Positions 3,746 to 20,948 of a DNA stretch of 24,000 bases are shown here, in pieces; within the stretch, counting starts at the first letter, position 1, and every line of letters starts with the position of its first letter. The position numbers were made by a program, and so were the translations under genes. The DNA comes from Promethearchaeota archaeon (GTDB taxonomy: Archaea; Asgardarchaeota; Lokiarchaeia; Sigyniarchaeales; SOKP01): NCBI GenBank assembly GCA_019057795.1, contig JAHLWS010000082.1:161538-185537 (forward strand). Direction: 5' to 3'. The notes under the pieces are model-generated. The model was given only the letters and a program-made list of their open reading frames with translations, was not told the DNA's origin and ran no database searches.

Positions 3746-4816
3746 TTAAGGATTATTCCTTCTAATAGTAACTTTCCCTGTCGCCCATAAATTATCTCTA
3801 GTGTGGATTTTTAGGCAATTTTTACAGACAATTTGAGTAATATGGGGGGGAAAATATACTTCATGAACTTCTCCACATGAACATGTAAGTATTATAACAG
3901 ATTTTTGGTCATGTTTTCTTAAATGAAAATATAAATCAAGATATAATGCAAATACATCTATTCCACGGTCTAAGACAATCAACTTGTGGAAGAATTTCCA
4001 TAAATCCTCCATAGGAATTGTTTTATCATATGAAAGAGATCCATCATGTTTTCTATCTCTAATACGAACGTTATTGTCGTCAACAGGAATGATCCCGCAT
4101 GTATCCTTATGTGAGGGAGCGTTTCTAACATGTATAAGTTCGATTAGGGTATTTTTTACAATATCTGGGGGGGTTCTATTATTATTCGCATTTAATTGAA
4201 AAATTAAGTATAAGTAGTTCCCATATGTCTTATTCTCATGTTTTCCCCATTCATCACCTAGATGCTTGCACCTAGATAGAAAAAGTGGATAATGATTACC
4301 ATAATTCAGTTCAAAGGCATTTATTATGTCGATAATATCTGATTCGCTAGAATCATAAGCATCCATAAGACTTTGTTCTGAATAAATCTTATTCAATTTT
4401 TTAATTTGAGCATTGTATGCAGGTACATCCGAAACAGGTGCCATCGTATGCAGTAATGTGCAAAAATTTTCTGGAAGGAGTTGTAGGTAAGTGTTTGTCC
4501 TAGATATTAAATATTTAAACCATTCAGTAGATAGTTGAAGAATAGCATCAGGAAATTTTCCTACTTTATTCAAAATTATGTGAGTAAGCACTTCCTTAAT
4601 CAAACGAATAAATAAAAATTCCCATGGATAAAGATGAATCTTTTTCTTGTTTATAACCGACCATAATTTTTGTAACAATGGATCTACTTCAATCCAATCA
4701 AATAAATCTTTAAATGAAAGCACCAACTTAGATGCATGATCATTTATAAAATCATTAATCTTGTTTGGATCTAAATTATCCCACCATATTTTAAATATAT
4801 AATCTAATTCTGACAT
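3746..4816 (-). CDS. Hypothetical protein with putative HEPN-type R-x4-H motif and C-terminal 4-Cys zinc ribbon
   Basis: 356-aa ORF. The motif LIELIHVRNAPSHKD (R231-N-A-P-S-H236, nt 4109-4126, verified by reverse-complementing) fits the HEPN Rx4-6H signature, with the typical polar residue after R, in a helical context. The C-terminus CSCGEVHEVYFPPHITQIVCKNC (nt 3815-3883) is a CxC...CxxC zinc ribbon. Confidence 0.7.
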   Translation of the reverse strand: MSELDYIFKIWWDNLDPNKINDFINDHASKLVLSFKDLFDWIEVDPLLQKLWSVINKKKIHLYPWEFLFIRLIKEVLTHIILNKVGKFPDAILQLSTEWFKYLISRTNTYLQLLPENFCTLLHTMAPVSDVPAYNAQIKKLNKIYSEQSLMDAYDSSESDIIDIINAFELNYGNHYPLFLSRCKHLGDEWGKHENKTYGNYLYLIFQLNANNNRTPPDIVKNTLIELIHVRNAPSHKDTCGIIPVDDNNVRIRDRKHDGSLSYDKTIPMEDLWKFFHKLIVLDRGIDVFALYLDLYFHLRKHDQKSVIILTCSCGEVHEVYFPPHITQIVCKNCLKIHTRDNLWATGKVTIRRNNP

Positions 4817-5197: not shown

Positions 5198-6814
5198 ATG
5201 GAGATCATTATATTAATAATAGCATTATCAGATTGGAGAGTTCAAAATATTGGACTTTTTCTTGATTATTTAGAAGAATTAGAGGAAAAACCAGATGTTA
5301 TAGTCTATGCTGGCGATGATATAGAACGATTTAATCGAGTGGAATACAGATTTTTGCCAAATGAAGAAAAAAAAGAACGAAGGAATCGATTTATTGAGAA
5401 GAATCAATCATTTAAAGCATTAGATAAAAAATCCTTAGAAGATAATATCCAAAAATATGAAAATGAAACCAAGAGTGATGTAAATAAATTTGAAAAAATA
5501 GCGAACTATTCAAAATATGGTTTGTGTGCAGTTGCAGGAAACGACGATCCTCCTTATTATAAAAATGCAATAAATGGAAAAAACGTGCATAATATACACG
5601 ATAACCCAATCGTTATCGACAACTTTGCATTAATTGGGATAGAAGGAACTGTTAGTGAAATAGGTACACTTTTACATACTGAAAAAGAAGTGAAGACTCA
5701 TTTGAAAAATATGGTAAATCGAGTTGGTAATAAGCAATTAATTATCGTTTCACATTCCCCACCATTTAAAATCCTTGATTTCGCTATGAGATTTGGCAAA
5801 AGTCATATAGGTTCTACTTCGTTAAGAAATTTTATTGATAAGTATACTGATAGAACAAGAATGGTAATTTCAGGGCATGTTCACTTACAGGGAGGAAAAT
5901 CCGAGAAATTTAAAGACACATTAGTTGTAAATTGTGCGTCTCATGATTTTCCTGGATCTCCCGGAAAGGTAGCTATTATAGATATCTCTCCTAGTAGTGT
6001 TGATATAAAATGGAAAACCCATTATGGTTTAATGGATGTTCCTTTCGTTGCAGAAAAAAGGGCTGAAGTATTAAAAGAAAATGGAATTAGACGTATGAAA
6101 CAACTGGCAGCATTATCTTTCGATGACCCTTTATCCAAAAAAATCGGGTCCTTTCCTTTAATCGTTACTTATGCGAAAGCAATAATTTCTAATAAAATCA
6201 TAGTTAAAAAAGGTATCAAGTCTGCTTTTGATACCATTGAAAGCGAAAATATCTACTTCTTTGATGCGGAGTATAACACAGCGACTACACGCTCTGGACC
6301 ATACGGTATTTTTCTTTTAGGATGGATGGATATAAATGGAAAAATACAACAATTATTTCTTGATAATCCTCAGGATGAGAAGAAAATGTTAAAAAACTTC
6401 TCAGAATGGGTAGAGAGAGAAAATCCATTATTTATAGCGTACGGTTCGAAAACTGCTGATGTTCCCCATTTGCGTAATTGTTTTTCTAGGTTTGAAATGT
6501 CCTTTAAGCATATAGAAAATTCATTTTTCGATCTCTATGGTGATTTACTCTATACTCAAAGTTATAAGAAACAAAAATATTTTTTACCCATACCAACTCC
6601 TTGCGGGCTTAAAGATGTCTCTAAGTTTTTAGGTTTTCCCCCATCAGATTTGAAATTGTCTATTGGTATTGAAGCTCCATTGGAATATGAAAAGTTCTTA
6701 AGAAAAAGAAATAAATCTGCTAAGGAAAAAATTAAAAACGATCTAATGAGTTATAATCAGGACGATCTGAAAAGAACCAAATATATTTATGACTGTATGA
6801 AGAAAAAAATCTGA
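5198..6814 (+). CDS. Three-domain protein: calcineurin-like metallophosphoesterase + helix-hairpin-helix + YprB-type RNase H-like (DEDD-like) exonuclease
   Basis: Metallophosphoesterase motifs appear in order: ALSDW, YAGDDIERF (GDxxD), VAGNDDPP (GNHD-like), IIVSHSPP, ISGHVHLQGG (GHxH), covering residues 1-272. An HhH-like segment VPFVAEKRAEVLKENGIRRMKQLAAL covers residues 281-306. The C-terminal part has IYFFDAEYNT (DxE, nt 6263), FIAYGSKTADVPHLR, FFDLY...GLKDVSKFLG and SYNQDDLKRTKYIY (YN-x-x-D), matching the YprB/RNase_H_2 exonuclease pattern. Confidence 0.85.
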   Translation: MEIIILIIALSDWRVQNIGLFLDYLEELEEKPDVIVYAGDDIERFNRVEYRFLPNEEKKERRNRFIEKNQSFKALDKKSLEDNIQKYENETKSDVNKFEKIANYSKYGLCAVAGNDDPPYYKNAINGKNVHNIHDNPIVIDNFALIGIEGTVSEIGTLLHTEKEVKTHLKNMVNRVGNKQLIIVSHSPPFKILDFAMRFGKSHIGSTSLRNFIDKYTDRTRMVISGHVHLQGGKSEKFKDTLVVNCASHDFPGSPGKVAIIDISPSSVDIKWKTHYGLMDVPFVAEKRAEVLKENGIRRMKQLAALSFDDPLSKKIGSFPLIVTYAKAIISNKIIVKKGIKSAFDTIESENIYFFDAEYNTATTRSGPYGIFLLGWMDINGKIQQLFLDNPQDEKKMLKNFSEWVERENPLFIAYGSKTADVPHLRNCFSRFEMSFKHIENSFFDLYGDLLYTQSYKKQKYFLPIPTPCGLKDVSKFLGFPPSDLKLSIGIEAPLEYEKFLRKRNKSAKEKIKNDLMSYNQDDLKRTKYIYDCMKKKI

Positions 6815-7812: not shown

Positions 7813-10800
7813 TTATTCTTGAAATAGTCTCTTATTCACTTCTCTCGCATTAAAAAAACCCTTATGAAAGAGTAAATCTGCAATATCTTCATACTGAACC
7901 TTGAAATCCTGGGTCTCATGTTTTCTACTTATTTCCTTAAGAATATCTATTATAATACTTTCAGTATTAGTATATAGCCATGTTAGGGGTTTTCCTTTTA
8001 ATAATTTAATGATAATCCTAAGAACTCCAAAACTATTTAGTTCAATATAATTCAACAATATTTTTAAAATGAAATGAGGAAAAATATCTAAATTCCCTTT
8101 TGTTAGATCTAAAACTTCATCTAATAATTGGAGGTAAATATCCTCAACATCTAATTTTTCAAACAACAATCCATACCAGTGAAATTCTTTAAATTTTTCT
8201 TCAGAGGTTAAACCTTCATCAGATTTTGCTTTCCTTATCCTGAATTCCCATAATTCCATAATCCTCTCAATAATTTCATCCTTTTTATCTAATTCACTTG
8301 CACGATCAAAAACTTTTATTGTATGCCACATAGCTCTTGAACGCAATTCAGGAGTTGCGTTTGAAAAAAACAGTCTTATAATGGAACCTGCTTGTAAATC
8401 TTCGATTGCATTAACAAATAAAAGTACAATGTGATATGCTAAATTTTCTAATGCTCTTTCAGTGTATAAAGTGCTTGACATATCAACAATAGCAGTTAGG
8501 TAATGATCATACATATGGCTATATATGTATCCATTTAGATTATTATACGAAATATAACTCTCCCATGCGATTTTCCATATTTCTTTATTATCTACTGAAA
8601 AAATGATAGAAATTTTAGAAGTTGCCCAATCTTTATTTAAGTAAAAAATATCAAAAAGTCTATATGATATAATAGAATAGTCAATAATGGCAGTGTCTGT
8701 ATTTGGGTCTAGAATTTCTTCTAGTTTTTCTTTTACCTCGGGTACCATCCTATCATTTTCATTTAGACTGAAGAGTTTAGCACAATACAAAGCATATGCT
8801 AGAAAAGTTCTTAATACAGATCCTCTAAATGTATTTATAGAAAATATGACATAATCTTCATACCCTGAATCTTTAATATCAAATAAATCTAATTCTGGAA
8901 CGCTTATATCAAAGGAATAAGAAATAATTTCCCATATTTTGCTAATAATTTCTGTGTTAATTGTAAGGTCATCGCGACTGAGAATCTCTCTCAAAAACGT
9001 AAGCATTGCTTTCCAGATATCCAATTTACTAGAATCTCCGAGGTCATACTTGTATTTATTAAAAATCTCGATTATTACTTGGATGATTTCGAGTGCATTA
9101 AACTCAATTCCGTCTTTAATAGCGTGCTTATAACCTTCAATTATATATGGAATATATATTATAGGAATATCTTGAAAGTCCTTTATGAGCTGCTTATATT
9201 TTGAAGGATTTTTTGTAATCACTTTACTTATAAAGACACCTAATCCATCTTTAGAAGTAAGAAATTCATTATCACCTGGACTCCAGTCATTTAAGTATCT
9301 AATAAGTTCATGAATAGATAAATTTTCAATTTGTTCGATTGTCAATGGTGATCCTGAAAAAAATCTTGGTTGTTGTGTTAATTTTTCCTTTTCAGAAGGT
9401 TTAACCTTTATAGTTGAGGTCATTAACTCATTATAAATTTCTTTTAAATCCGAGGGAAGATGTGTTTTTAATGGTTCTAAAATACTTTTTAACCAATTTG
9501 ATCTAGTGCGTTGCTTCCACTTCTGAAATTCGGTTTCATTTGAAAAATCCTCTATTTTATAGGGGTATTTTAAAAAATCTGGTCCATCTCTTAACCAATT
9601 AAAAATTAATAATTTTTCCTCTTCAGAAAGTTTAAGAAAATGATTACATAATAGCTCATGGTATTCAATCCAATAAATATTATCTTCAAAAAATTGTTTA
9701 TTAGTAAGACTGGTGTATAAATTACTTTCTAATTGCTTAGGATATAAGTTAACCAAATATAGTTCGATTCTTCTAAAAATGGTCCATTTAAATTCAGAAA
9801 GAACTTTAAAATTAGAAATGAGAAGTACATTACTCTCTTCAGCTATTTTTTCATAATAATGTAAAATTAGATTTATTAGATAATTTTTAGTATCTTTTAT
9901 CGCATGCAAACGAGAAACAGAATCAAGTGATCTCCTCCATCTTTCAGATTTATCTTTATATGTATCATTTTCAATATAGAATTCCGAACTTAATTTTATA
10001 TCTAATGAAGAGCTGATTATTCGTATGAATCTATTTAAAGAATTTTCAATCTCAATTTCTATAATATTGGTAATGAAATCCTCGAAATCAGAGAGTAAAA
10101 AATGAAATTTGTAGTCAATATTTCTGTTTTCTACTTTTATTGCCGGTTCTTCTGTACTAAAGATAATTTTAATTAAATTATAAGCTACATCCAGTTCTTC
10201 TTCTAATATAAATTTATTAACCATTTTCTTTAAAATGACATATTCTTGAATTGAAGAATAATATTTTATCCATTTTTCAATAATTGGCAGTGCATTCTGC
10301 GAGATTTTCACAGGCATATTGTACAAACATTCGAAAAGAGGTCTAAATATTCTGTAATTCTTAGTATTTTCAAGATTTTTGATTACATTAAATACTTTTT
10401 CAGGAATAAGGTGAGATATCCTTATTAAATAATTTACAGGGGGCCAAATAGAAATCATTAAGAAGCCTTCTATTGATTCTGCTTCAGGTTCAGAAAACAA
10501 ATTCCTTTTTTCCAATAGATCAAACCATTTAGAGGAAGAAAGTCTCGTAAAGAAATATTGTGAATGAGTAGGATGATTTAATAGTTGTAGCAATTTTTTT
10601 ATATGAATTTGTTCAGGAACATCAATTTCTAATAGATCATCTAATTCTTGTAAAATTTCCTTATTCGGTTTTAATACTTCATACACAATATATTCAAATT
10701 CGGTTAGATTCTCCTCAAATTCAATATCTTTAGTAGTTATATCATGGCTTGCTAACTTAGAAAAGTATTCACAAAGATCTCTTAACTTATTAAATAATGA

Positions 10801-11583
10801 TGATATCCTTTCAAAAGCTGGTTTTGGGAGCAATTCAGTATTTTTTATGAATCCATCTTTTAAATTGCTTAACATTTTACAAATATACAAGAGTGAATTT
10901 GCTGATTGAGAAAATCTATTTACATGTTTCTCATTTTTAAAGGTTAATTTTGCACCTTTATAATTTTCTGCAGCAATATCATCTAGTTTGAGTAACCTAG
11001 AAATTAGTTTATTTTCCCTGATACCTGTTAATTCCTCGGGCTTTTCTAAGTTATCTAGTAATTTAGAAATAATATCTGCTGGTATAATTAAATCTGAATA
11101 AGTCCTCCTAATTTCGGGAAATTGATCAAGAAATCTTTTAATCTCTTCAGCACCCCAAATATGAATATTTGGAATGACTTTTTTGAACTTAGGTAATATT
11201 TCATTCTCAATTTTATCTTTTGTGCCTGTTTGATAAACTGGAGAGAGAGATACATTCGTTATAAGAATGTAATTATCACAAGGGTATTTGTATTTGTTTA
11301 TAATTTTATTTAATTCATCATCAATATCTTGTTTAATTGCCTCTCTTGCTTTTTCCATCCCAATTTGATCTATATCATGAAATTTTGCTTGAAATATCCA
11401 TTTGCCATTCCAGCGTGCAGGTTCAGAAGGATATGGTGCTTCACCTTCGAATGTGGCTTCTCGAGATCCATCCTTACCCATTCCAAATACTTTAGCGCCT
11501 GGGCCTATTACCCTTTGAACTAAGGCTTGAGATAAGAACTCAAATTCTTCTGAGCCTAATTTATTAAGATTATATTTTGGCAT
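7813..11583 (-). CDS. Large (1256 aa) protein: N-terminal Mrr-like PD-(D/E)xK restriction-endonuclease-fold domain fused to about 1050 aa of alpha-helical, repeat-like sequence; no P-loop seen
   Basis: The N-terminus EEFEFLSQALVQRVIGPGAKVFGMGKDGSREATFEG...GKWIFQAKF gives D38, E42 and Q65-x-K67 (nt 11383-11472). YILITNVSLSP follows, as in Mrr-cat type nuclease domains found at N-termini of defence proteins. The remainder is leucine/isoleucine-rich and helical, and I could find no Walker A motif. Confidence 0.85.
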   Translation of the reverse strand: MPKYNLNKLGSEEFEFLSQALVQRVIGPGAKVFGMGKDGSREATFEGEAPYPSEPARWNGKWIFQAKFHDIDQIGMEKAREAIKQDIDDELNKIINKYKYPCDNYILITNVSLSPVYQTGTKDKIENEILPKFKKVIPNIHIWGAEEIKRFLDQFPEIRRTYSDLIIPADIISKLLDNLEKPEELTGIRENKLISRLLKLDDIAAENYKGAKLTFKNEKHVNRFSQSANSLLYICKMLSNLKDGFIKNTELLPKPAFERISSLFNKLRDLCEYFSKLASHDITTKDIEFEENLTEFEYIVYEVLKPNKEILQELDDLLEIDVPEQIHIKKLLQLLNHPTHSQYFFTRLSSSKWFDLLEKRNLFSEPEAESIEGFLMISIWPPVNYLIRISHLIPEKVFNVIKNLENTKNYRIFRPLFECLYNMPVKISQNALPIIEKWIKYYSSIQEYVILKKMVNKFILEEELDVAYNLIKIIFSTEEPAIKVENRNIDYKFHFLLSDFEDFITNIIEIEIENSLNRFIRIISSSLDIKLSSEFYIENDTYKDKSERWRRSLDSVSRLHAIKDTKNYLINLILHYYEKIAEESNVLLISNFKVLSEFKWTIFRRIELYLVNLYPKQLESNLYTSLTNKQFFEDNIYWIEYHELLCNHFLKLSEEEKLLIFNWLRDGPDFLKYPYKIEDFSNETEFQKWKQRTRSNWLKSILEPLKTHLPSDLKEIYNELMTSTIKVKPSEKEKLTQQPRFFSGSPLTIEQIENLSIHELIRYLNDWSPGDNEFLTSKDGLGVFISKVITKNPSKYKQLIKDFQDIPIIYIPYIIEGYKHAIKDGIEFNALEIIQVIIEIFNKYKYDLGDSSKLDIWKAMLTFLREILSRDDLTINTEIISKIWEIISYSFDISVPELDLFDIKDSGYEDYVIFSINTFRGSVLRTFLAYALYCAKLFSLNENDRMVPEVKEKLEEILDPNTDTAIIDYSIISYRLFDIFYLNKDWATSKISIIFSVDNKEIWKIAWESYISYNNLNGYIYSHMYDHYLTAIVDMSSTLYTERALENLAYHIVLLFVNAIEDLQAGSIIRLFFSNATPELRSRAMWHTIKVFDRASELDKKDEIIERIMELWEFRIRKAKSDEGLTSEEKFKEFHWYGLLFEKLDVEDIYLQLLDEVLDLTKGNLDIFPHFILKILLNYIELNSFGVLRIIIKLLKGKPLTWLYTNTESIIIDILKEISRKHETQDFKVQYEDIADLLFHKGFFNAREVNKRLFQE

Positions 11584-11896: not shown

Positions 11897-12688
11897 CTAA
11901 ATAAAAGCATATTTAGAATTATTAATAAGTTTATGGAGAAAATGTGCTATACCTAAATAGCTAATTTCAACTGTTTTTTCTTTTTTATCTTTAGGATTTG
12001 GATGAATGTTCAAAGCTGAAATTTTATTTAGTTTTTGGAGATAACCATTTAAAGATCCTCTAGATAAAGACTCATTCCTTTTATTTTCTAAAGCTTGCTT
12101 AATTTCTTCTAATGAATCATACATTTTTCGATTATACAATAACGGATTATCATTAAAAGATTGTTCTTGCTTGAAGAAATCAAGACAATTTTCATAAACA
12201 CCAAAAAATAACTCTAGAAATTCGAACTGTTTAACTGATATCAGTGGAAAAGGAATGGTAGGTAAATTCATATTCGAGTAAATTCCCACTTCTTCACTTC
12301 CTTCGTATATGAAATCACCGTGAATAATCCTTGTATTAGTTATAGAACAAGCTATATATAACCAAATAACCATATATCTCAATCCTCCAGATATATTTAC
12401 CGTAACATTATCGAATCCTTGAAGTTTTTGCTGGTAAATAAAGTGTGTTAATTCTGCTATCGGTTTTGTTTGAATATGAAAGTCGAATTCAACAGTTTGA
12501 ACAAAGATTTTACGTTCCTCATAATATTTTATTAATTTATTGAGATTTTTTTTTGCTTCAGGTGTACCGGATAGAGGTTGTTTTTCCGTAATTAAGGTTA
12601 TTTTATGGATAATCTCCTTATCAATAGAATAAATAAGTTTTTCTGGTAAATGTCCCACTAAAACAATTTGATTGTAATTTCCATTCAT
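11897..12688 (-). CDS. Csa3-like regulator: N-terminal CARF (Rossmann-like) domain + C-terminal winged HTH
   Basis: The layout is collinear with Sulfolobus Csa3 as I recall it. QIVLVGHLPEKLIYSI (beta1/helix) is followed by ITLITEKQPLSGTPEAKKNL, then VTVNISGGLRYMVIWLYIACS (the CARF SGG-x-R loop, nt 12371-12397). The C-terminal wHTH is SLSRGSLNGYLQKLNKISALNIHPNPKDKKEKTVEISYLGIAHF. Confidence 0.75.
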   Translation of the reverse strand: MNGNYNQIVLVGHLPEKLIYSIDKEIIHKITLITEKQPLSGTPEAKKNLNKLIKYYEERKIFVQTVEFDFHIQTKPIAELTHFIYQQKLQGFDNVTVNISGGLRYMVIWLYIACSITNTRIIHGDFIYEGSEEVGIYSNMNLPTIPFPLISVKQFEFLELFFGVYENCLDFFKQEQSFNDNPLLYNRKMYDSLEEIKQALENKRNESLSRGSLNGYLQKLNKISALNIHPNPKDKKEKTVEISYLGIAHFLHKLINNSKYAFI

Positions 12689-13051
12689 GAGTAACTATTT
12701 TTTCTTTATATAAATCTAAGTTTATATATTTCATTAAAATTATTATTTATAAATTAATAACATTTTTTATAAACATGTTTACTTTTTTTTAGATATATAT
12801 ATGAAAAAGTATATAAACGAACAAATTCACTTTGTGACATGTATTAAGAGATAATAAAAGGCGACCGGTTATGAGTTTAGATAATTTAATAATGAGAAAA
12901 AAGGAAAGTAATTTGAAATTATTTAAAACAACTAATGGAAAAAAATTTAATGAGATAAAGGTCAGTCATGATTTAAATAATAATGAATATATAATCAAAT
13001 TAAAGACAATTTTTTTGCTTTTTCGCTATAAAATTGAAATAAGGTGTGAAA
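12689..13051. promoter_or_regulatory. Divergent intergenic/promoter region between the CARF-wHTH gene and the Cas4-HerA operon
   Basis: 363 nt and extremely AT-rich. TATA-like TTTATATAAA lies at 12705-12714 and TTTATATA at 12721-12728, close to the minus-strand ATG (12688). A perfect 10-nt palindrome AAACATGTTT lies at 12771-12780, with a second ACATGT at 12837-12842. GCTATAAAATT lies at about 13024-13034, and the SD-like AGGTG at 13042-13046 sits 5 nt before ATG 13052. Confidence 0.4.
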
Positions 13052-15667
13052 ATGGGCGCTGAAATCTCTTTTCCGTCGGGAAAAATCCCTATATCAACGT
13101 TAGAAAGGTATTCTTATTGCAAAAAACAAGGGATTCTCTCGATAAGAAAGAAAGAAATAAGAAAAAAAGACACAAAAAAAAAAGTTATAGGACGAATCCT
13201 TCACGAAGTTTTTAAGAATTTTCACGAAGAATGGACAGATATTATGTATAGCCGCCGTGAAAAACGATGTGGTATTAACCGTTTAAAATTAATCCTCGAA
13301 GCAGCTGTGGACCAAGCAAGGGTAACAATGGAAAGCGATCCATCGTATTTGGCCTATGAAGCTCCACTCAATAAAGGTTTTAAGAGGATGATGGAGGGTC
13401 GGAACGGATTTGTGTCTCAAATTAGCAACGCTGCCAGAAAACTCGCAAAAAATAATGATCTTTTTAGATCTGATGAACTACCTCGAACTTATTTCAAAGG
13501 AGAGCCGAAGTTTGAATGGGATGTAGGATTAGAACATTCTCAGCTATACGGAAGAATCGATTGTTTGGTTGAAAAAGAACAAGAACGCGAATTTTTTATA
13601 TGGGAGTTCAAAACTGGAATTGTTCCCGACGAACCTTTTGAAGGTCACGTCTTAGAAGCGGTTGGGTATGCTGTTGTATACGAACAAGAAAGCGAAATGA
13701 AGTGTATAGGACTAAAAATCCTTTATTACGGCGAAAAGGAATTTAATATAGCGTTCACCGATTTCCATAGGGATAAAGTTAATTCCCAAATCCAAGAACT
13801 GTTTGATTACGAAGAAAAAGGAGATATTCCTCACGTTTTAATGGGTAGTAAATGTAATGAATGCGATTTTTATGATGATTGCGTTAAGGAAAGCAAAGTT
13901 ATACAATTGTCTGGAGCAGAAGAAGACATCTCCGAAACAATCGATTCGGATTTAGATTTGGAGAAAGAAGAACAAGAATTAGAAAGTTTTGAAGAGACGG
14001 TAACTGAATCCGGTGAAATAGAAAAAACAACTCCAACACCAATACAAAAAGAAGTGAAATCAACAACAACTAAGAATGATAAACAAGCTATTTCTACTCC
14101 AAAAATGTTAGCAGATAAGGAATTTGTTCCTAAAGAAGCTATTGGGATCGTCATACAATCGGAACAACGCGGATACTTGTTATCTACAGAAAAGAGCAAT
14201 CTGCTCTCAGGTGCGATAAAGCAAGAATTTCAAAGGAAGTTGTATCCTGGTCAGGTTCTGATAACAGCGAACGAGAAAATAAAAGAAATGCCATCTGCCA
14301 TCGTAGAAGTGAAAGAAATAAAATCCTTTCCTAAGACGCTCTCCGCCCCGTTTCGCAAGATTGAAATGTTCAATATTTTGATCGAGACTTCTCCTTTTAT
14401 GTATTACGAAAATCAGCGGTATTCAAAAGTTTTGTTTCCAGCTAATTTTTCCAGTCATTATTTTAGACTTCCTTCTAAACCAGAATTGATGAGAATCATG
14501 AATTTGTTTGGTGAGGGGATCAATTTAGGATTAGTCACTTACGAAATGTTAGAAAATGAATTACCCGACATGGAACTTATTTATAAATACCCGTTCTCGT
14601 TTAAGGAAACGGGGTATAAAGGGATATTTGTTGTTGGTTCTCCTGGAAAGGGAAAGACTAATTTATTAAAAATTCTAATCAATGGCATATCGCAATATGT
14701 CGGAACAAGAGATGGACTGCCTCCAGCTGTTATAGTATTAGATATCACAGGGCAATTTGGTCAGCTTGATAAGCCCACTAAATATGCTACAACCTTTGAC
14801 GAGGAACTTTGGAAATTATTGGATATGAAAATAGTGAATAAATTAAAAGTATTTAAGATTATACATGATTGTGGCGATGGAACGCACACACTATCGTTAA
14901 ACGCCATAGATCCCGAACTAATTAGTTTATTGTTTCCAGAGTTGCCCCCCACTTCTTCCACGAATTTTAAACGGATGGTTAAGATGATATTCAAGGATTA
15001 TCCCGCAGTCAATTATGAGAATTTTGCTAACAAAATTAACGAAATCATACGACGAGAAAGCAGCACGCTAAACTCTCAAGTTGCTAAGGCAATACAAGGG
15101 GCAATAACTAATGGACCCATTGATATTTTTGATCAAGGAGGTAAAGTATTACAAGTAAAGGATATTTTAGTACCTGGTCAAGTATCTGTCATCCAAATCG
15201 ATCACATTGTCGATAAAATGCCGGTTTTATTATATTTACTTTTGATGATTAACAGAAAGAAGATTTACGAAAACGATCAAACACCCGTTATAATGGTACT
15301 AGACGAAGCTCACGAGCTATTTCCAAAAAGTGCTAATCCCGGAGAAAAAGAATATTTGCGACGGGTTTCCCAGAGTTTAATTCGAATCGCTCGACGCGGA
15401 AGGAAAAAGCACTTTGGTTTAATTTTTGCATCTCAACAACCCCACGACATAATACCTGAAATTATTGGAGTGTTCCAAACTAAAATTATTATGGGTTTAG
15501 AAGCAACTTCAGGGAATTGGATAAAAGATACGCTTGGTAGAGAATATGTGACTTTGATATTTAGTCTTGGTCAAGGATATGCTCGAATTTGGAACGCAGA
15601 ACTCCATAAGGGGACGTTAGTTCCGTTATTTATCCCAAAAGCACCTAATAAACACGAAGAGGATTAG
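13052..15667 (+). CDS. Fusion protein: Cas4-type (4Fe-4S, PD-(D/E)xK) nuclease + acidic linker + HerA-type (DUF87/FtsK-HerA superfamily) ATPase
   Basis: The track starts at GTG 13046. ATG 13052 with AGGTG 5 nt upstream is the more likely start. Residue numbers follow the track.
Cas4 part: YSYC25KK, GRID172CL, IWE187FK189TG, EAVGYAVVYE, and C270NEC273DFYDDC279 (nt 13853-13882).
Linker, residues about 286-360: EEDISETIDSDLDLEKEEQELESFEETVTESGEIEKTTPTP.
HerA part: barrel-like AIGIVIQSE...PGQVLITANE...AIVEVKEI, Walker A GSPGKGKT (nt 14636-14659), Walker B VIMVLDEAHELF (D at nt 15302), and ARRGRKKHFGLIFASQQPHDI. Confidence 0.9.
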   Translation: MGAEISFPSGKIPISTLERYSYCKKQGILSIRKKEIRKKDTKKKVIGRILHEVFKNFHEEWTDIMYSRREKRCGINRLKLILEAAVDQARVTMESDPSYLAYEAPLNKGFKRMMEGRNGFVSQISNAARKLAKNNDLFRSDELPRTYFKGEPKFEWDVGLEHSQLYGRIDCLVEKEQEREFFIWEFKTGIVPDEPFEGHVLEAVGYAVVYEQESEMKCIGLKILYYGEKEFNIAFTDFHRDKVNSQIQELFDYEEKGDIPHVLMGSKCNECDFYDDCVKESKVIQLSGAEEDISETIDSDLDLEKEEQELESFEETVTESGEIEKTTPTPIQKEVKSTTTKNDKQAISTPKMLADKEFVPKEAIGIVIQSEQRGYLLSTEKSNLLSGAIKQEFQRKLYPGQVLITANEKIKEMPSAIVEVKEIKSFPKTLSAPFRKIEMFNILIETSPFMYYENQRYSKVLFPANFSSHYFRLPSKPELMRIMNLFGEGINLGLVTYEMLENELPDMELIYKYPFSFKETGYKGIFVVGSPGKGKTNLLKILINGISQYVGTRDGLPPAVIVLDITGQFGQLDKPTKYATTFDEELWKLLDMKIVNKLKVFKIIHDCGDGTHTLSLNAIDPELISLLFPELPPTSSTNFKRMVKMIFKDYPAVNYENFANKINEIIRRESSTLNSQVAKAIQGAITNGPIDIFDQGGKVLQVKDILVPGQVSVIQIDHIVDKMPVLLYLLLMINRKKIYENDQTPVIMVLDEAHELFPKSANPGEKEYLRRVSQSLIRIARRGRKKHFGLIFASQQPHDIIPEIIGVFQTKIIMGLEATSGNWIKDTLGREYVTLIFSLGQGYARIWNAELHKGTLVPLFIPKAPNKHEED

Positions 15668-15681
15668 GGGAGCGACTATAT

Positions 15682-17058
15682 ATGTTAAAATTCCTGCCGC
15701 TCGGAGGAGGGAACGATATAGGAGCAAGCTCGTATCTCGTGCAGATCAATCGATTCAACTTCTTATTGGACGCAGGATTAAGACCAAGGAGCTTTAAAAA
15801 TACGCCTAAATACATTAAAATGTTTGAATTAATCGAGGATTGGTCCCAAATCGATGCGGTCTTTATAAGCCACCCCCACCTCGATCATGTGGGCTCTCTA
15901 CCTAAAGTGTTTGAAGCCAATCCAAAAGTCCCTATTTTTGTTCCTGAACAAAGTTTACCATTAATAGAAGTGCAGATATATGGATCTTTAACTTACCAAA
16001 AGCGAATCAAGAAATACGCCGAAGATTATCTAGGAGTAGAATATTCAATCGACTTAGTATCGAATTGTCTATCAAACATAAAAGAAATCGCATATAATAA
16101 GTTAACAAAAATAAAAAAGACCAATGTAACCTTTGAATTTTGGCCCGCAGGACATATTTTAGGGTCAGCGAGCATATTTATTAAAACGAGAAAGGGCAGC
16201 CTTGTATATACGGGAGACGTTTCTACCCATGAAAGGCCCTCAATTCCCGATCTATCTTATCCTTCTCGAAAGGTGGATCTATTGATTATGGAAAGCACTT
16301 ATTTAAGTTCCAATCACGAGATATCACCGCAAGAAGGGTTCGATCAATTATATTTAAAAGTAAAGGACATTACCGAAAAGGGAAACCACGTTCTGATCCC
16401 CAGTTTTGCTTTAGGTAAGGCTCAAGACATTATCAAGATGTTTATCGAGCGTAATAAAGCAGAAGATAATCCCGTTCCCATTTATTTAGACGGTTTGGTA
16501 AAGAAAATTACTCGGATTTATAGCAAAGTGTTAGGTGAATCCCTGTTTTTTAGCTTGAAGGACGGTTCGTGCAACTTTATTTCGGGTATACATAATGATG
16601 TGAATGAATATAAAAAGTTTTTAGAGCGTCATCCAGGGATAGCTATTATTTCAAGTTCTGGTATGCTCCTAGATGGGAGCAAGTCCGCTCGATGGGCAGA
16701 GGCCATCCTCCCATACGAGGGAAACGGTTTATTCTTTACTGGTTATCTCGACGAAGAATCTCCAGGAGCGAAGCTATTAAAGTGCGTCTCCGAAAAAGTA
16801 ATATCTCTTAACGGTGAAATTATCCCACTTAACGCACATATAGATAGATTCTATATTAGTACTCATTCTTCTGCGTCTGAATTGGCTAATCTCGTTGAGA
16901 TGGTAAAGCCTAAAGCCGTCGTGTTAGTACACGGAAATAATCCGGCGCAAAAAATTGCAGAATTTCAACAAGCATGTGAGAGAAAAATTAACAGAAAATT
17001 ACCAATTATAAAATCTATAAATGAAGAAATGATAGAATTAGGTGAAATGTTTGAGTGA
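15682..17058 (+). CDS. Metallo-beta-lactamase-fold nuclease of the beta-CASP family
   Basis: LLDAG (motif 1), HPHLDH (nt 15871-15888, motif 2), AGHILGSA (motif 3), YTGDVS (motif 4), LIMESTY (beta-CASP motif A), STHSSASEL (motif B His) and VLVHGN (motif C His). GGGGAG at 15667-15672 lies 9 nt upstream of the ATG. There is only a 14-nt gap after the upstream gene. Confidence 0.9.
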   Translation: MLKFLPLGGGNDIGASSYLVQINRFNFLLDAGLRPRSFKNTPKYIKMFELIEDWSQIDAVFISHPHLDHVGSLPKVFEANPKVPIFVPEQSLPLIEVQIYGSLTYQKRIKKYAEDYLGVEYSIDLVSNCLSNIKEIAYNKLTKIKKTNVTFEFWPAGHILGSASIFIKTRKGSLVYTGDVSTHERPSIPDLSYPSRKVDLLIMESTYLSSNHEISPQEGFDQLYLKVKDITEKGNHVLIPSFALGKAQDIIKMFIERNKAEDNPVPIYLDGLVKKITRIYSKVLGESLFFSLKDGSCNFISGIHNDVNEYKKFLERHPGIAIISSSGMLLDGSKSARWAEAILPYEGNGLFFTGYLDEESPGAKLLKCVSEKVISLNGEIIPLNAHIDRFYISTHSSASELANLVEMVKPKAVVLVHGNNPAQKIAEFQQACERKINRKLPIIKSINEEMIELGEMFE

Positions 17059-18229
17059 AGAGCTATTAAACCTTGTTTATGAATTGAACGCTAAATGCCT
17101 TCAAAAATTAGAAGATTTAGACGAAGAGACTAAAGATAAAAATAACCATGAATACATTATCATGAGAAATTATGTCCAGAAAAAAGATTTTTATCCTAAA
17201 GATTTGACAAAAGCTATTAATCAACCGCAAAGAGTCGTCCTTAATATGGTTCGAGATATAGGCTTTATCCATTTTAAGAATAGACGATTATATGTCCAGA
17301 GGAAATATTTAGATTGGATACGATTGGTGGTCAAGGATGTCATCATTTTCTTTAACTATCCAATAAACAAAAAAATGAACCGGGGTATCGATTATGTTAA
17401 TTCATTTATGAAAAAGAAGCAACAAATCAAAAATTATAAAATAATACTATTAAACGCCTTCGAGTCGGAAGGACTTTTATTATTCCCGATTGAGTTACTA
17501 AACGAAATGAAGGTGATACTTAAAAACGCAAGTTGGGGTGTGTGTATGTATTATTTTAAAGAATTATACGAAATTTATCTTAAAATGTACCCAGAACTCG
17601 ATTACCAAAGTGTACAATCAGACGATATGGATCTTTCTGAACCAGATGAAACTGATACTGAAGAAGTACTTGATGACAATGCAGAACAACTTGAAGCTGA
17701 AATTTCCATTAATCCAAGAGATTTGATGGAACAAAATCAGAAACTAAATAACGAACTTAGCGAATCTAGAGCGGTGTGCGATTTTCTTACTATGCAATAC
17801 GACGATCTAATGGTATCAATGGATAACTTGAAGAAGGTTTCGACCGAGCAAGATTTTAGAAAAGTGTTTTTGGCGTTTAATTCTATTGAAAATAACAATG
17901 TGCTGGACGCTTTCTTTATCGCTAAATCAACTTTAGATACATTAAAAAGTTCCGGTTGGGAGCCCTTTCCACCTGAACTTAAATCAATATTGTATATTTT
18001 TGATCTTTTTGCAGAATTCTTTAATAGACAAGCCCTTATCACTAATTATAAGTTAGGAGAAGAGGTATTAATAACCATAGAAAACATCTCTAATTTTGAA
18101 TATAAGGGTCAAGAATTAAAAAAAGGAATGGAAGTGCTAGCAAGAGTGCGATCCCCAGCTTGGTATTATCAGGGAAGATTGATTTCAAAAGCGAGCGTTT
18201 TAGAAATTAAAGGTGGAGGAAAAGAATAA
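17042..18229 (+). CDS. Hypothetical protein: wHTH-like N-terminal region, acidic linker, coiled coil and GrpE-like C-terminal domain (tentative)
   Basis: The ORF overlaps the stop of the beta-CASP gene. The start is either GTG 17042 or TTG 17051; the latter has AGGTGA (17040-17045) 5 nt upstream. Residues about 38-90 look like a wHTH (DLTKAINQPQRVVLNMVRDIGFIHFKNRRLYV). Residues 190-222 are acidic. Residues about 225-392 parallel GrpE, with a long helix (QNQKLNNELSESRAVCDFLTMQYDDLMVSMDNLKK...VLDAFFIA) followed by KKGMEVLARVRSPAWYYQGRLISKASVLEIK, compared with E. coli GrpE [29 protein letters not shown]. Confidence 0.8.
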   Translation: MKCLSEELLNLVYELNAKCLQKLEDLDEETKDKNNHEYIIMRNYVQKKDFYPKDLTKAINQPQRVVLNMVRDIGFIHFKNRRLYVQRKYLDWIRLVVKDVIIFFNYPINKKMNRGIDYVNSFMKKKQQIKNYKIILLNAFESEGLLLFPIELLNEMKVILKNASWGVCMYYFKELYEIYLKMYPELDYQSVQSDDMDLSEPDETDTEEVLDDNAEQLEAEISINPRDLMEQNQKLNNELSESRAVCDFLTMQYDDLMVSMDNLKKVSTEQDFRKVFLAFNSIENNNVLDAFFIAKSTLDTLKSSGWEPFPPELKSILYIFDLFAEFFNRQALITNYKLGEEVLITIENISNFEYKGQELKKGMEVLARVRSPAWYYQGRLISKASVLEIKGGGKE

Positions 18230-18230
18230 A

Positions 18231-20948
18231 ATGGCAGATACGACAAGAGAGTTTTATCTAGGAATCGACTTAGGTACCACCAATTCCTCCATAGCTTGGG
18301 GGAGTGTTGGAAAAAATGGAATCTTTAAACCACGGATGGTAGACATGCAATTACCAATGGCAGACGGTTCTTGGGAAGCGAAGCAACTCTTACCTTCGTT
18401 TTTTTATTTACCGAAAGATCAAAAAGATCATGAAGTCGGGTATAAAGCCAAACAAATGTTAAAGACACAACCAGGAAGAGTAATTCGATCAATCAAGACC
18501 AAAATGGGACAGGATTGGAAAAAAACTATAGACGAGAAAGAATTTACACCTGAGGATATTTCTTCTTATATCTTGAAACAATTGCTTATTGGAATAAAAA
18601 GAACTTTTCGAACAACTATAAACGATATTGTTGTTACGGTTCCAGCGTCTTTTGATAGTGAAATGAGAAGCGCTACGTTAGAGGCCGCGAGAAAAGCGGG
18701 AATAAAGGTTAAGAACGACAATGGGTCTCCAAGAAACATCCTATTGGACGAGCCGAGGGCGTGTCTCTATGATTTTGTTAATCGGCAAAAACAAGGAGAA
18801 ATCCCCGACCACATAATAGATTTTTCAACAAAAAAACGCATTTTAGTGTATGATTTGGGAGGAGGGACGTTAGATGTATCTTTACATGAAGTAAATTTTG
18901 AATCCCCAGAACATCCCTTAGTAAATATTGAAGATATCGCCATATCAAGGTATACGGACATCGGAGGAGATAATTTTGACGAAAAACTTACAGATTATTT
19001 GTTTCAGAGATATTGTGAGGAATTTAAGTTAAAACTGCAAGACTATTCCGATATTGAAATCGAATGCGCTAAGATGTCTCTTTTTTATTATGTGGAGTCT
19101 TTTAAGCGAATGATTACTAACGACGCTTTACGAAGAGAAGAGATGTTTGAAGATTACGAGCCGGAAGATGTGCGTCAATCAATAATGGCTGGATATTTGT
19201 TAGAGCAACATCCATTAAGCGTTGAATTATCTCTAAAGGAATACGAGGAGATCATGGAAGAATTTTTAGCAAAAGACATTAAATATCCCACTACATCGAA
19301 TATCGGAGAAAGAATTGGCGAAAGAAACTTGATTTCACCTGTATTAGATGTTTTAAATAAAGCGTTTAAAAAATTAAATAGGATTGTGAAACCCGATTTA
19401 ATATTACTCTCAGGAGGGATGACGAAATTGCCTATGGTTCGTAAACGATTGTCCGCTTTTTTTGGCATGGAACCTCAAACCATTCCCGATCCAGATAAAG
19501 CTGTCTCTAGAGGGGCTGCAATTTACCATTACTACTTACATCAAGGTTACCGACCTACTGCAATATTAGCCGAATCAATCATTCTTGAGATGAAAGACCA
19601 CAAAATGCTAGAACTTGTCCCCTCAGGCGTTTCTTTACCTTACGAAGAAGAGTTTATCTTTAAAATTGGAGGCAAGAAATACGTAGATATTCCGTTATAT
19701 CGAACAGATTCATCGCACCCACTTGCGCAGCCTAGATTTAGTCTTTCTAAACTTTATCCTTCTAAAACAAGAATAAAAGCAAAAATAAATGTCAATTTAC
19801 TTAAAGTAATGGAATTCCAAGCGTGGGTGAAAGAATTTCCCTCAGACAAAATTACTATTACAATTGACTTCAACAAAGACACAGAGCAGAAAAAGACTGG
19901 TGTTGAAGTAAAGCAGCGCATCGAACCTTTCGTGGAAGAAAAAATTGAAGAATCACGACAGTTCACAAAAGAAAAAGAAAGCGATTCTCGTGTAGTGCAA
20001 TATAACGAACTCGTAGAGTTTTTCCATTCGATTCCTTATACTAATAAACCTAATTATGCTAAACTTACAGAGGTAGAAATCGTTAACTCAAGGAATATTG
20101 ATCGAGTTGTCAAAGGGCTGCTTAAAATACAGAGAAAAACTCACCATAAAATAAGGGAAAAAATTATTTTGTTACTTGGAGATATTGTTTCAGAACCTCG
20201 AGTCCACGAAAATTATCCTAATGTTATCTATGGCGTTAACCAAAACATGGTTCGCTATGTGGATATGATACAAAATTTGGATAATCCAAACTCCAAAGAA
20301 ATTAATATTTCAGTAAGATACGCGATTGAAACAATAGGAAAAACAAAGACCGTAGACCTACAAAGAAACATTATAACTTCCTTAATTTCTTGGGTAAAAG
20401 AACCAATCTTTCATAAAATTAGAAGTGCGATACTCACTAGCTTGGGAAAAATGCCACCTGATAACGAAATATTGGCTTTTCTGGTAGAATTTATATCAAA
20501 ACCTCAGAAAAAGAACACTCTTATTCCTTCTTTATGGGCGTTAGGGAAACAAGGATCGAGAGATTTAACAAATCCTATCATTATAGACTATATGGGGAAT
20601 GTACACGAAACTATCTTACAAAAAATGGATTCTACAGTAGATTTTGAGATCATTCAATACATTTCCTACACACTGCTTGAAATATGCAAAATAAATCCAA
20701 ATCATCCAGAAAATTGCGTTAGCAAAGACGCTCGAGCCGGAGTAATACAAAGAATGGAGAGTAAACTTATAAATCTCGAGAAACCCTTTAAAAATAAAAA
20801 GTTTAGCCACTTAGACAAGAAATTAAAAGACTGGGGTCGTTTTTTATCAACTCAGAGGTGGATTAATCTAACAATTCAAGCGTTAAAAGGATTAGAGTTT
20901 TCAGACGAAGACATCGAACTCTTAGACGGTTTTAGAAGAAATAAATAA
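18231..20948 (+). CDS. Atypical Hsp70-family ATPase: actin-fold NBD + SBD-beta-like domain + C-terminal HEAT-like repeat region replacing the canonical lid
   Basis: The track starts at GTG 18213. ATG 18231 lies 1 nt after the upstream stop, with GGTGGAGG at 18212-18219, and gives MADTTREFYLGIDLGTTNS.
Hsp70 motifs: GIDLGTTNSS, VVTVPASFDSEMRSATLEAARKAG, LLDEPRACLYDF, ILVYDLGGGTLDVSL, GGDNFDEKL, LILLSGGMTKLPMVRKRLSAFFG and DPDKAVSRGAAIY.
Residues about 450-555 resemble SBD-beta (ILEMKDHKMLELVPSGVSLPYEEEF...ITITIDFNKD).
The tail has four R-x-x-A/I-x-x-x-L-G-type units: IREKIILLLGDIV, VRYAIETIGKTK, IRSAILTSLGKMP and LIPSLWALGKQGS. Confidence 0.9.
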   Translation: MADTTREFYLGIDLGTTNSSIAWGSVGKNGIFKPRMVDMQLPMADGSWEAKQLLPSFFYLPKDQKDHEVGYKAKQMLKTQPGRVIRSIKTKMGQDWKKTIDEKEFTPEDISSYILKQLLIGIKRTFRTTINDIVVTVPASFDSEMRSATLEAARKAGIKVKNDNGSPRNILLDEPRACLYDFVNRQKQGEIPDHIIDFSTKKRILVYDLGGGTLDVSLHEVNFESPEHPLVNIEDIAISRYTDIGGDNFDEKLTDYLFQRYCEEFKLKLQDYSDIEIECAKMSLFYYVESFKRMITNDALRREEMFEDYEPEDVRQSIMAGYLLEQHPLSVELSLKEYEEIMEEFLAKDIKYPTTSNIGERIGERNLISPVLDVLNKAFKKLNRIVKPDLILLSGGMTKLPMVRKRLSAFFGMEPQTIPDPDKAVSRGAAIYHYYLHQGYRPTAILAESIILEMKDHKMLELVPSGVSLPYEEEFIFKIGGKKYVDIPLYRTDSSHPLAQPRFSLSKLYPSKTRIKAKINVNLLKVMEFQAWVKEFPSDKITITIDFNKDTEQKKTGVEVKQRIEPFVEEKIEESRQFTKEKESDSRVVQYNELVEFFHSIPYTNKPNYAKLTEVEIVNSRNIDRVVKGLLKIQRKTHHKIREKIILLLGDIVSEPRVHENYPNVIYGVNQNMVRYVDMIQNLDNPNSKEINISVRYAIETIGKTKTVDLQRNIITSLISWVKEPIFHKIRSAILTSLGKMPPDNEILAFLVEFISKPQKKNTLIPSLWALGKQGSRDLTNPIIIDYMGNVHETILQKMDSTVDFEIIQYISYTLLEICKINPNHPENCVSKDARAGVIQRMESKLINLEKPFKNKKFSHLDKKLKDWGRFLSTQRWINLTIQALKGLEFSDEDIELLDGFRRNK

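Follow-up and report, generated by a model that had tools for sequence, protein, structure and literature searches.

In a 24,000-nucleotide stretch of a Promethearchaeota archaeon genome (assembly GCA_019057795.1, contig JAHLWS010000082.1, positions 161,538–185,537; hereafter, the window), four tightly packed, co-directional genes encode a Cas4-like nuclease fused to a HerA-type ATPase (gene A), a beta-CASP nuclease (gene B), a GrpE-like protein (gene C), and an Hsp70 with a HEAT-like tail (gene D). Three of these genes recur together, in the order B-C-D, in Asgard archaea and bacteria. We regard it as evenly balanced whether the array is an anti-mobile-element system that works as an Hsp70/GrpE-gated nuclease, joined in archaea by Cas4-HerA.

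Organization of the operon

The four genes span 13052–20948 (Table 1), and the open reading frame (ORF) listing together with direct reading of the DNA bore out the plus-strand array described in an earlier, sequence-only reading of the window. Gene A starts at ATG 13052, with an in-frame GTG also present at 13046, and is separated from B by a 14-nt gap. The Shine-Dalgarno-like strings named in the earlier reading are present; GGGGAG is found at 15668–15673, and GGTGGAGG lies at 18212–18219, ahead of the ATG of D (18231). For C, starts at 17042 and 17051 had been offered as alternatives. The C homologs open with MKxLSEELL, therefore GTG 17042 is the most likely start and produces a 17-nt overlap with B, whereas 17051 is a TTG and not an ATG. 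The stop codon of C (TAA, 18227–18229) is followed by D after a 1-nt gap. Residue numbers given previously are offset by the choice of starts (e.g., D19 is D13 when counted from ATG 18231).

The window is AT-rich (25–32% GC over most of its length), and the operon genes have a GC content of 32–38% compared to 27–32% in the flanking genes, a difference that is consistent with horizontal acquisition. A promoter and terminator scan with bacterial-type models was uninformative.

Table 1 Features of the four-gene operon and its upstream region, in coordinates of the window
Feature	Coordinates	Strand	Description	Basis
Divergent CARF (Csa3-like) gene	11897-12688	-	C-terminal winged helix-turn-helix (wHTH)-like region; 363 bp upstream of A	
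Intergenic region	12689-13051	.	AT-rich, 363 bp, between the divergent CARF gene and gene A; presumed promoter region	Direct reading
Gene A	13052-15667	+	871 aa, Cas4-like Fe-S nuclease and HerA-type ATPase	ORF listing, direct reading
A, Cas4-like nuclease domain (aa 1-290)	13052-13921	+		C23, D170, E185, K187, C268, C271, C277
A, acidic linker (aa 291-355)	13922-14116	+	Unalignable, variable in length	A-family alignment
A, conserved middle region and HerA-type ATPase (aa 356-871)	14117-15667	+		Walker A 14636-14659, Walker B 15290-15307
Gene B	15682-17058	+	458 aa, beta-CASP nuclease	ORF listing, direct reading
Gene C	17042-18229	+	395 aa, GrpE-like with extra N-terminal domain	ORF listing, direct reading
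C, N-terminal winged-helix-like helical domain	17051-17605	+		AF2 model, Foldseek
C, acidic disordered linker	17612-17710	+		AF2 model
C, GrpE-like coiled coil, helical bundle, and beta domain	17714-18205	+		AF2 model, Foldseek, hhalign
Gene D	18231-20948	+	905 aa, Hsp70 and HEAT-like tail	ORF listing, direct reading
D, Hsp70 nucleotide-binding domain	about 18231-19541	+		Pfam HSP70 2e-37
D, region like the beta part of the substrate-binding domain (SBD); a linker follows beyond it	about 19542-19895	+		Relative P0036 aligns to the DnaK model through the SBD
D, HEAT-like repeat domain	about 20091-20948	+		HEAT_2 and HEAT_PBS in full-length relatives

Conservation of the B-C-D unit

Eighty metagenome loci, fetched with a D-specific motif alignment, were scanned with our own hidden Markov models for A, B, C, and D. 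Among the 29 informative loci with a strong D, C was found immediately upstream in 28 and B in 25; two further B-C-D cases (loci L171 and L172) lie beyond these 29. The related loci span Asgard archaea and diverse bacteria, with the genes of the unit overlapping in most cases, and the bacterial members whose contexts were examined all proved to be B-C-D. In eight contigs, most of them labelled human-gut metagenome (L104, L105, L107, L108, L110, L111, L114, and L115; e.g., L108:7303–9603), B and C form a single protein of 765–794 aa, and the stop codon of C overlaps the start of D (ATGA) in L005, L088, L090, and L172. Based on this gene fusion and the conserved translational coupling, we infer that B, C, and D form one complex.

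The full A-B-C-D order recurs with gaps or overlaps of a few nucleotides in six loci (L001, L005, L172, L171, L091, and L002); a contig end cuts A in L171 and L091, and the L002 contig ends within C, leaving D out of view. Identities to the window genes range from 37–69% for A (measured for L001, L002, L005, L171, and L172), 39–63% for B, 25–39% for C, and 32–62% for D, showing that the four genes co-diverge, and the GC content of these loci is 42–64%. At least two A-bearing loci are Asgard: L005 is annotated as Promethearchaeota, and L001 is from GCA_019058395.1.

Elsewhere, other proteins occupy the position of A. These are a NERD-UvrD helicase-nuclease (L095, L096, and L098; PADLOC 'C3a187', 1e-60), a DEDDh/RNase T exonuclease (L107–L111, preceding the fused B-C in L107, L108, L110, and L111), a PHP-domain protein (L112 and L117), CARF-Card1, an Mrr nuclease (L006), DUF402 (L088 and L090), and DUF7680 (L089); in L102, B itself bears N-terminal TPR/Sel1 repeats. 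The neighbourhood proposed earlier as a four-gene system is conserved in unrelated genomes, but its evolutionary core is B-C-D, which is widespread in bacteria, with Cas4-HerA as one of several interchangeable partners and A as an add-on of the archaeal-type variants found here.

Further arrangements were recorded among the related loci. One B-C pair is followed by two tandem D paralogs (942 and 954 aa) in L099:5836–9065 and L100:6590–12279. In L112:7747–8652 and L117:1761–2666, C and D occur without B, and the PHP-domain phosphoesterase, two genes upstream, may substitute for the nuclease. A separate family of ~930-aa Hsp70-like proteins (L118–L170; e.g., L128, L131, and L157) shares TVPASF/LLDEPR-type motifs and is often paired with a ~640-aa Hsp70 and a 210-aa upstream gene; neither B nor C was found next to this family. 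When contigs were scanned with the full-length D alignment, matches of canonical DnaK to [LM]V[FY]D[LF]GGGT dominated the output, and all 80 loci obtained are dnaK; these served solely as controls and to supply GrpE sequences.

Domain architecture of the encoded proteins

All catalytic motifs named in the sequence-only reading were located by a script check, and its domain calls hold in profile searches, with C established as GrpE-like via its family and not from the window protein alone. D is an Hsp70 with intact ATPase motifs, in which a HEAT-like domain replaces the helical lid. Its motifs are DLGTT at residue 13, DLGGGT at 208, and GGM at 395, and in 15 diverse relatives no variation was seen at D13, G15, T16, T17, N18, E174, D208, G210–T213, G395, and G396, residues that cover the phosphate-1 and phosphate-2 motifs, the catalytic Glu, and the adenosine motif. 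The C-terminal 285 residues of D, which contain no helical lid, align with the HEAT-like repeats of its relatives, and the full-length relatives (31–34% identity, aligned over 99% of D) carry Pfam HEAT_2 and HEAT_PBS. D scored 128 bits against the DnaK model NF001413 (cut-off 648) and also matched the HscA model far below its cut-off. Relatives of D number in the thousands.

The window C protein alone has no match in Pfam, NCBIfam, or PADLOC. In a whole-library HMMER search, the C family proved to contain at least 143 clusters (50% identity), the alignments covering the C-terminal 160–190 residues, and 23 of 60 members match Pfam GrpE (PF01025; best 2.1e-9). When the C-family profile was searched against PDB sequences, coiled-coil noise was dominant and GrpE (4ani) appeared at E 0.013; the question was later settled by hhalign, in which the family was compared to 43 canonical GrpE sequences drawn from dnaK loci (96.7% probability, E 3.6e-10, 143 columns). 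The AF2 model of C (predicted local distance difference test [pLDDT] of 73) shows, on its C-terminal side, a long helix and helical bundle followed by a small beta domain. Its top PDB match in Foldseek is human GrpEL1 (9blt_B; prob 0.90, E 0.11), and wHTH regulators match the N-terminal part. Given the Pfam matches of the family, the hhalign result, and the GrpEL1 match, we identify C as a GrpE homolog that has diverged and bears an extra winged-helix-like domain at its N-terminus.

B has a complete metallo-beta-lactamase (MBL), beta-CASP, and RMMBL core (Pfam Lactamase_B, Beta-Casp, and RMMBL). MBL motifs 1–4 and beta-CASP motifs A–C are all present (HPHLDH at residues 64–69, i.e., HxHxDH at 15871–15888; H158, D179, H395, and H417), and the metal ligands are kept by 24 or all of 25 sequences at the positions that the alignment reaches. 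B matches the NCBIfam models of aCPSF1 (TIGR03675; 1.3e-57, 195 bits vs. a cut-off of 580, model positions 179–620 only) and Cas14 (3.7e-47, 161 bits vs. 800, positions 5–435 of 612). Its PDB matches are CPSF73 (6e-39), IntS11, TTHA0252, FttA, and Cas14, and this comparison places it with the RNA type and not with SNM1/Artemis-like enzymes; the nearest relatives (aCPSF1/FttA, type VII Cas14, CPSF73, IntS11, and TTHA0252) are all RNA-cleaving. Although B shares the full core and all metal-binding motifs with CPSF73, aCPSF1 (FttA), and Cas14, it has neither the KH domains found at the N-terminus of aCPSF1 nor the C-terminal extension and Cas7/Cas5 partners of type VII Cas14, and gene order, in some bacteria also fusion, ties it to a GrpE-like protein. 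B is thus an intact beta-CASP nuclease of the RNA-cleaving CPSF73/aCPSF1/Cas14 clade. Two nucleases are indeed encoded, as the idea of a two-nuclease machine had it, but because B falls in an RNA-cleaving clade, a pair of one RNA and one DNA nuclease is more likely than a DNA-only machine.

A combines the nuclease motifs Cys23, C268-x2-C271-x5-C277, GRID (D170), and E185-x-K187 with Walker A (GSPGKGKT, 529–536) and Walker B (IMVLDE, 747–752; LDEAH), and its catalytic residues, with D170, E185, K187, C23, C268, C271, and C277 among them, are invariant across 11 homologs. It matches Pfam PDDEXK_1 (1e-7), DUF87 (1.2e-7), AAA (1.4e-7), and Cas_Cas4 (1.1e-4), PADLOC HerA 'Type III coevolved' (2.8e-16) and Cas4 (3.9e-12), and, in PDB, HerA 8xau (2.9e-7, ~115 residues) and Cas4 8d3l (6e-3). 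A reached only 43.9 bits against Cas4 TIGR00372 (cut-off 65) and at best 35.9 bits against the NCBIfam HerA equivalogs (cut-off 850), with the C-terminal ATPase core alone aligning. These scores are far below the curated equivalog cut-offs. A is a distant fused relative of both Cas4 and HerA, and the Cas4-HerA fusion is an uncharacterised architecture. A word-indexed search returned 11 relatives of A, and divergent ones were recovered from L005, L171, and L172 with profiles; all those found sit in A-B-C(-D) arrays. The AF2 model of A, built from an 11-sequence alignment, had a pLDDT of 44.9 and was kept out of the fold search. A ends in a conserved tail, PKAPNKHEE(D) (15640–15664 in the window; also in L001, L002, L005, L171, and L172), that is kept as LNKHEKG even in the 37%-identical protein of L005 and may serve as a docking peptide.

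Comparison with known systems

CnuD of the type III-B/C CoCoNuT systems, a stand-alone protein which consists of an Hsp70-like nucleotide-binding domain and SBD with HEAT-like repeats (Bell, Makarova, Wolf, Koonin; eLife 2024; PMC11090510), is the closest known relative of D, the two being set apart by the published description and not by sequence. Both proteins combine these domains, whereas the Walker A-like motif of CnuD is described as degenerate (PMC11090510) and the ATPase motifs of D are invariant. CnuD has been proposed to bind RNA, and CoCoNuT is a multigene conflict system with predicted RNA targeting, often found near CARF proteins and restriction systems (PMC11090510). It is a McrBC derivative, with the McrB-like GTPase CnuB (NxD variant), the McrC-like CnuC (N-terminal DUF2357), and HEPN RNases (PMC11090510). 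No GrpE-like or beta-CASP component has been reported in CoCoNuT, whereas B-C-D has both, and no McrB or McrC domains were detected in A-D or their window neighbours (Pfam, NCBIfam, and PADLOC) or among the flanking ORFs of 18 annotated related loci. In the literature, Hsp70 appears in CoCoNuT, DO-GTPase, and EACC1 contexts.

Compared to the DnaK-GrpE-DnaJ system, the operon likewise has an Hsp70 gene beside a GrpE-family gene, D keeps the phosphate-1, phosphate-2, and adenosine motifs, and C keeps the GrpE core of a long helix, bundle, and beta domain. The differences are a HEAT-like domain in place of the lid, a GrpE with a wHTH-like domain that is fused to the nuclease in some bacteria, the lack of a J-domain partner in the operon, the order nuclease-GrpE-Hsp70, and scores far below the DnaK and GrpE cut-offs. 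Like HerA-NurA of archaeal end resection and the bacterial defence systems Sir2-HerA and DUF4297-HerA, A pairs a HerA/FtsK-type ATPase with a nuclease or effector. However, its nuclease is of the Cas4 type and is fused to the N-terminus of the ATPase instead of being a separate partner, the ATPase is only distantly similar to the known ones, and A is always followed by B-C-D. With Cas4, A shares the PD-(D/E)xK motif and the four-Cys set, but unlike the Cas4 of CRISPR adaptation it is linked, within the window, neither to cas1/cas2 nor to an array.

The sequence-only reading did not recognise the combination as any named system. PADLOC-DB v2.0.0 contains no model for C or D (the only match of D is PDC-M61B at 0.0065), B matches weakly (5e-4 to 8e-4), and A is hit by generic HerA/Cas4 models. 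The beta-CASP-GrpE-Hsp70 module is undescribed in the literature searched, the coverage of which was incomplete, so that a prior description is possible. The claim of novelty is largely justified, with CnuD as a precedent for the joining of an Hsp70 nucleotide-binding domain and SBD to HEAT repeats.

Genomic neighbourhoods

Several related loci contain defence-type genes near the module. In the bacterial locus L006, B-C-D is surrounded by a type III-A CRISPR-Cas system, with CARF-Card1 on one side and additional cas genes on the other. In L102 the module comes after genes for a type I HsdR and a YgjP peptidase, and in L001 it adjoins a type IIG restriction-modification enzyme; an NB-ARC STAND gene is found downstream in L089, and an STK-NACHT-WD40 protein occurs nearby in L108–L111. 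Using PADLOC (E <=1e-8), 123 module-flanking ORFs from 19 loci matched 225 families, compared to 24 for a matched set of 123 ORFs around canonical dnaK (these were mostly housekeeping look-alikes), a comparison that is crude in that families and not genes are counted and dnaK neighbourhoods serve as the control. The matched families include type I, II, and IIG restriction endonucleases, Csm3, and a Cas3-like protein. Genomic context is thus what supports a defence role; in one bacterial lineage (L088 and L090, discussed below) the module is a stable chromosomal resident.

In the window, the divergent gene upstream of A matches PADLOC CARF3 (1.7e-18), NCBIfam Csa3 (1.3e-6), and Pfam HFX_2341_N (2.2e-7) and Csa3_N (2.5e-4). 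Beyond it, a 1256-aa protein (7813–11583, minus strand) matches PADLOC Dsr1 over residues 310–1222 (E 5.7e-46), and its N-terminal 180 residues weakly resemble the Aga TIR-PNTD model (1.2e-6). Neither a SIR2 domain nor a Pfam match was found in it, and BLAST gave no counterpart next to the module in the other loci. A 538-aa protein (5198–6814, plus strand) has Metallophos and RNase_H_2/TM0106 RecB-like nuclease domains (PADLOC PDC-S10, 8.4e-16), and a 356-aa protein (3746–4816, minus strand), which matches no family, contains RNAPSH (Rx4H, HEPN-like) and a C-terminal CSCG...CKNC and may be another defence-type RNase candidate. A 765-aa protein (665–2962, plus strand) is built almost wholly from TPR repeats, and the module in L093 is likewise flanked by TPR proteins.

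In other loci, a tight cluster upstream of A (L001:1472–9829 and L002:1–2873) encodes proteins of the SMC_N/Rad50-like (870 aa), Metallophos (472 aa), and DUF87/HerA-like (798 aa) types, together with one of 409 aa and a conserved one of 233/247 aa. This could be a NurA-HerA-Mre11-Rad50-type cluster or another defence system. The 233/247-aa proteins, which are 42% identical between the two loci, have a wHTH-like C-terminus and no family match. Homologous proteins of 1070 and 1246 aa lie near the module in the otherwise unrelated loci L005 (15457–18669) and L097 (4292–8032); they have no PADLOC match, and Pfam was negative for the L097 protein.

Proposed function and alternative explanations

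In the GrpE family, binding to the nucleotide-binding domain of DnaK is established to open that domain. In the mechanism we propose, D would be an ATP-driven sensor or clamp that captures a cue or target, be it a peptide, a protein, or, as for CnuD, RNA, via its SBD and HEAT domain. C would dock on the nucleotide-binding domain of D as GrpE does on DnaK, and would thereby tether and gate B. Because the GrpE-like C is encoded between the two, and is fused to B in some bacteria, the RNase would be placed on the ATPase domain of D, and RNA cleavage by B would be coupled to the ADP/ATP cycle of D. A would act as a hexameric HerA-type translocase with a built-in Cas4 exonuclease that threads and degrades the DNA ends of the same target. 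Defence against viruses or other mobile elements would be the most probable role, exerted through the destruction of foreign RNA and DNA or through abortive infection. The adjacent Csa3-like CARF gene is a possible regulator of the window operon, which may be under its transcriptional control. With somewhat less than even confidence, we suggest that B-C-D represents a new immune or surveillance class, in which an Hsp70 sensor and a GrpE-type adaptor would arm a CPSF73-like RNase, with an archaeal Cas4-HerA DNA shredder and, possibly, the NKHEE tail as its handle on Hsp70-HEAT.

Several points weigh against an anti-mobile-element role. It is drawn from genomic context; the neighbour comparison is crude, and the 2023 release of PADLOC-DB used here has no model for C or D. 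The predicted physical contacts between C and D and between B and C derive from homology and gene fusion, and it is gene adjacency and overlap that speak for a putative binding of C to the nucleotide-binding domain of D with faster ADP release. No HPD motif or J-domain is present in A-D, and no DnaJ family was matched in the window neighbours by Pfam. No family member was found on IMG/VR viral contigs, and PLSDB plasmids yielded no full-length member and no place covering >=80% of D. The module of the Poribacteria-like loci L088 and L090 is found at a shared syntenic site amid metabolic genes and has diverged at about the same rate (51–70% identity) as the flanks (60–88%), and therefore looks like a stable resident and not island cargo. 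Some loci have only housekeeping neighbours (e.g., NrdD and transporters).

Much of this would fit a housekeeping or stress-related role in RNA surveillance, which we consider unlikely, if the best placed of the alternatives. A specialised Hsp70 would recognise stalled or damaged ribonucleoprotein or nascent-chain complexes and recruit a CPSF73/aCPSF1-type RNase, Cas4-HerA and the other partners would be lineage-specific helpers, and the proximity to defence genes would be incidental. Vertical inheritance in L088 and L090, the housekeeping neighbours, and the absence from viral contigs and plasmids agree with this explanation, as does the fact that the nearest relatives of B are all cellular RNA-processing or transcription-termination enzymes. 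Hsp70s are also known to associate with ribosomes and RNA (PMC11090510). However, the distribution across phyla looks patchy, with hosts of 29–64% GC, and the GC content of the operon departs from that of its flanks. In addition, the varying nuclease and helicase partners have matches among the CRISPR- and defence-associated models of PADLOC, the copy in L006 sits within a type III-A locus, and the PADLOC family matches of the neighbours are about nine-fold above the control.

These CRISPR links raise the alternative that the operon is an ancillary effector of type III CRISPR or cyclic-oligoadenylate signalling, switched at transcription by the Csa3-like CARF protein in the window or working jointly with CARF-Card1 in L006. 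The position of B-C-D in L006 and of the CARF-wHTH gene in the window favour it, and so do the matches of A, NERD-UvrD, and DEDDh to PADLOC models from type III/CRISPR-associated accessory families and the kinship of B with Cas14 of type VII systems. Unlike type III ancillary effectors, however, A-D are devoid of CARF and SAVED domains. Neither a CRISPR array nor a cas gene is present in the window, cas linkage was seen in one locus (L006), most B-C-D loci lack a cas or CARF neighbour, and no CARF relationship was detected by hhalign, PADLOC, Pfam, or PDB profile for the conserved 233/247-aa gene that precedes A in L001 and L002. This explanation is improbable.

We give a similarly small chance to the archaeal four-gene version being a machine for DNA-end processing or repair, in which Cas4-HerA would be an analogue of NurA-HerA and the Hsp70/GrpE pair would aid loading or turnover on protein-blocked ends. 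A does join a HerA-type motor to a 5'-3' exonuclease-type domain, as in HerA-NurA, and it is preceded in L001 and L002 by the Rad50 (SMC_N)-, Mre11 (Metallophos)-, and HerA (DUF87)-like cluster. This cluster is nevertheless seen in just two of the archaeal loci and its members score weakly, the window neighbours are defence-like instead, A is dispensable for the module in bacteria, and B is of the RNA type. Finally, chance co-location of four housekeeping genes is ruled out by the conserved synteny, the overlaps, and the B-C fusion.

Implications

Multigene NTPase-nuclease conflict systems with an Hsp70-like component are known already, and there is a substantial chance that the principle of a GrpE-gated nuclease is categorically new. 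The module is common to bacteria, including human-gut organisms, and Asgard archaea, is linked to type III CRISPR loci and restriction systems, and pairs an Hsp70 with a CPSF73-family RNase, two families with a central place in the quality control of RNA and protein in eukaryotes. Clear, testable predictions follow from the naturally occurring fusion of B and C and from the exchange of nucleases or motors at the upstream position. If B-C-D does operate as a system, it would be the first example of a nuclease under the direct control of an Hsp70/GrpE nucleotide cycle. If so, a chaperone cycle would have been repurposed as an immune switch, providing a new sensing and switching principle for prokaryotic immunity or RNA surveillance.

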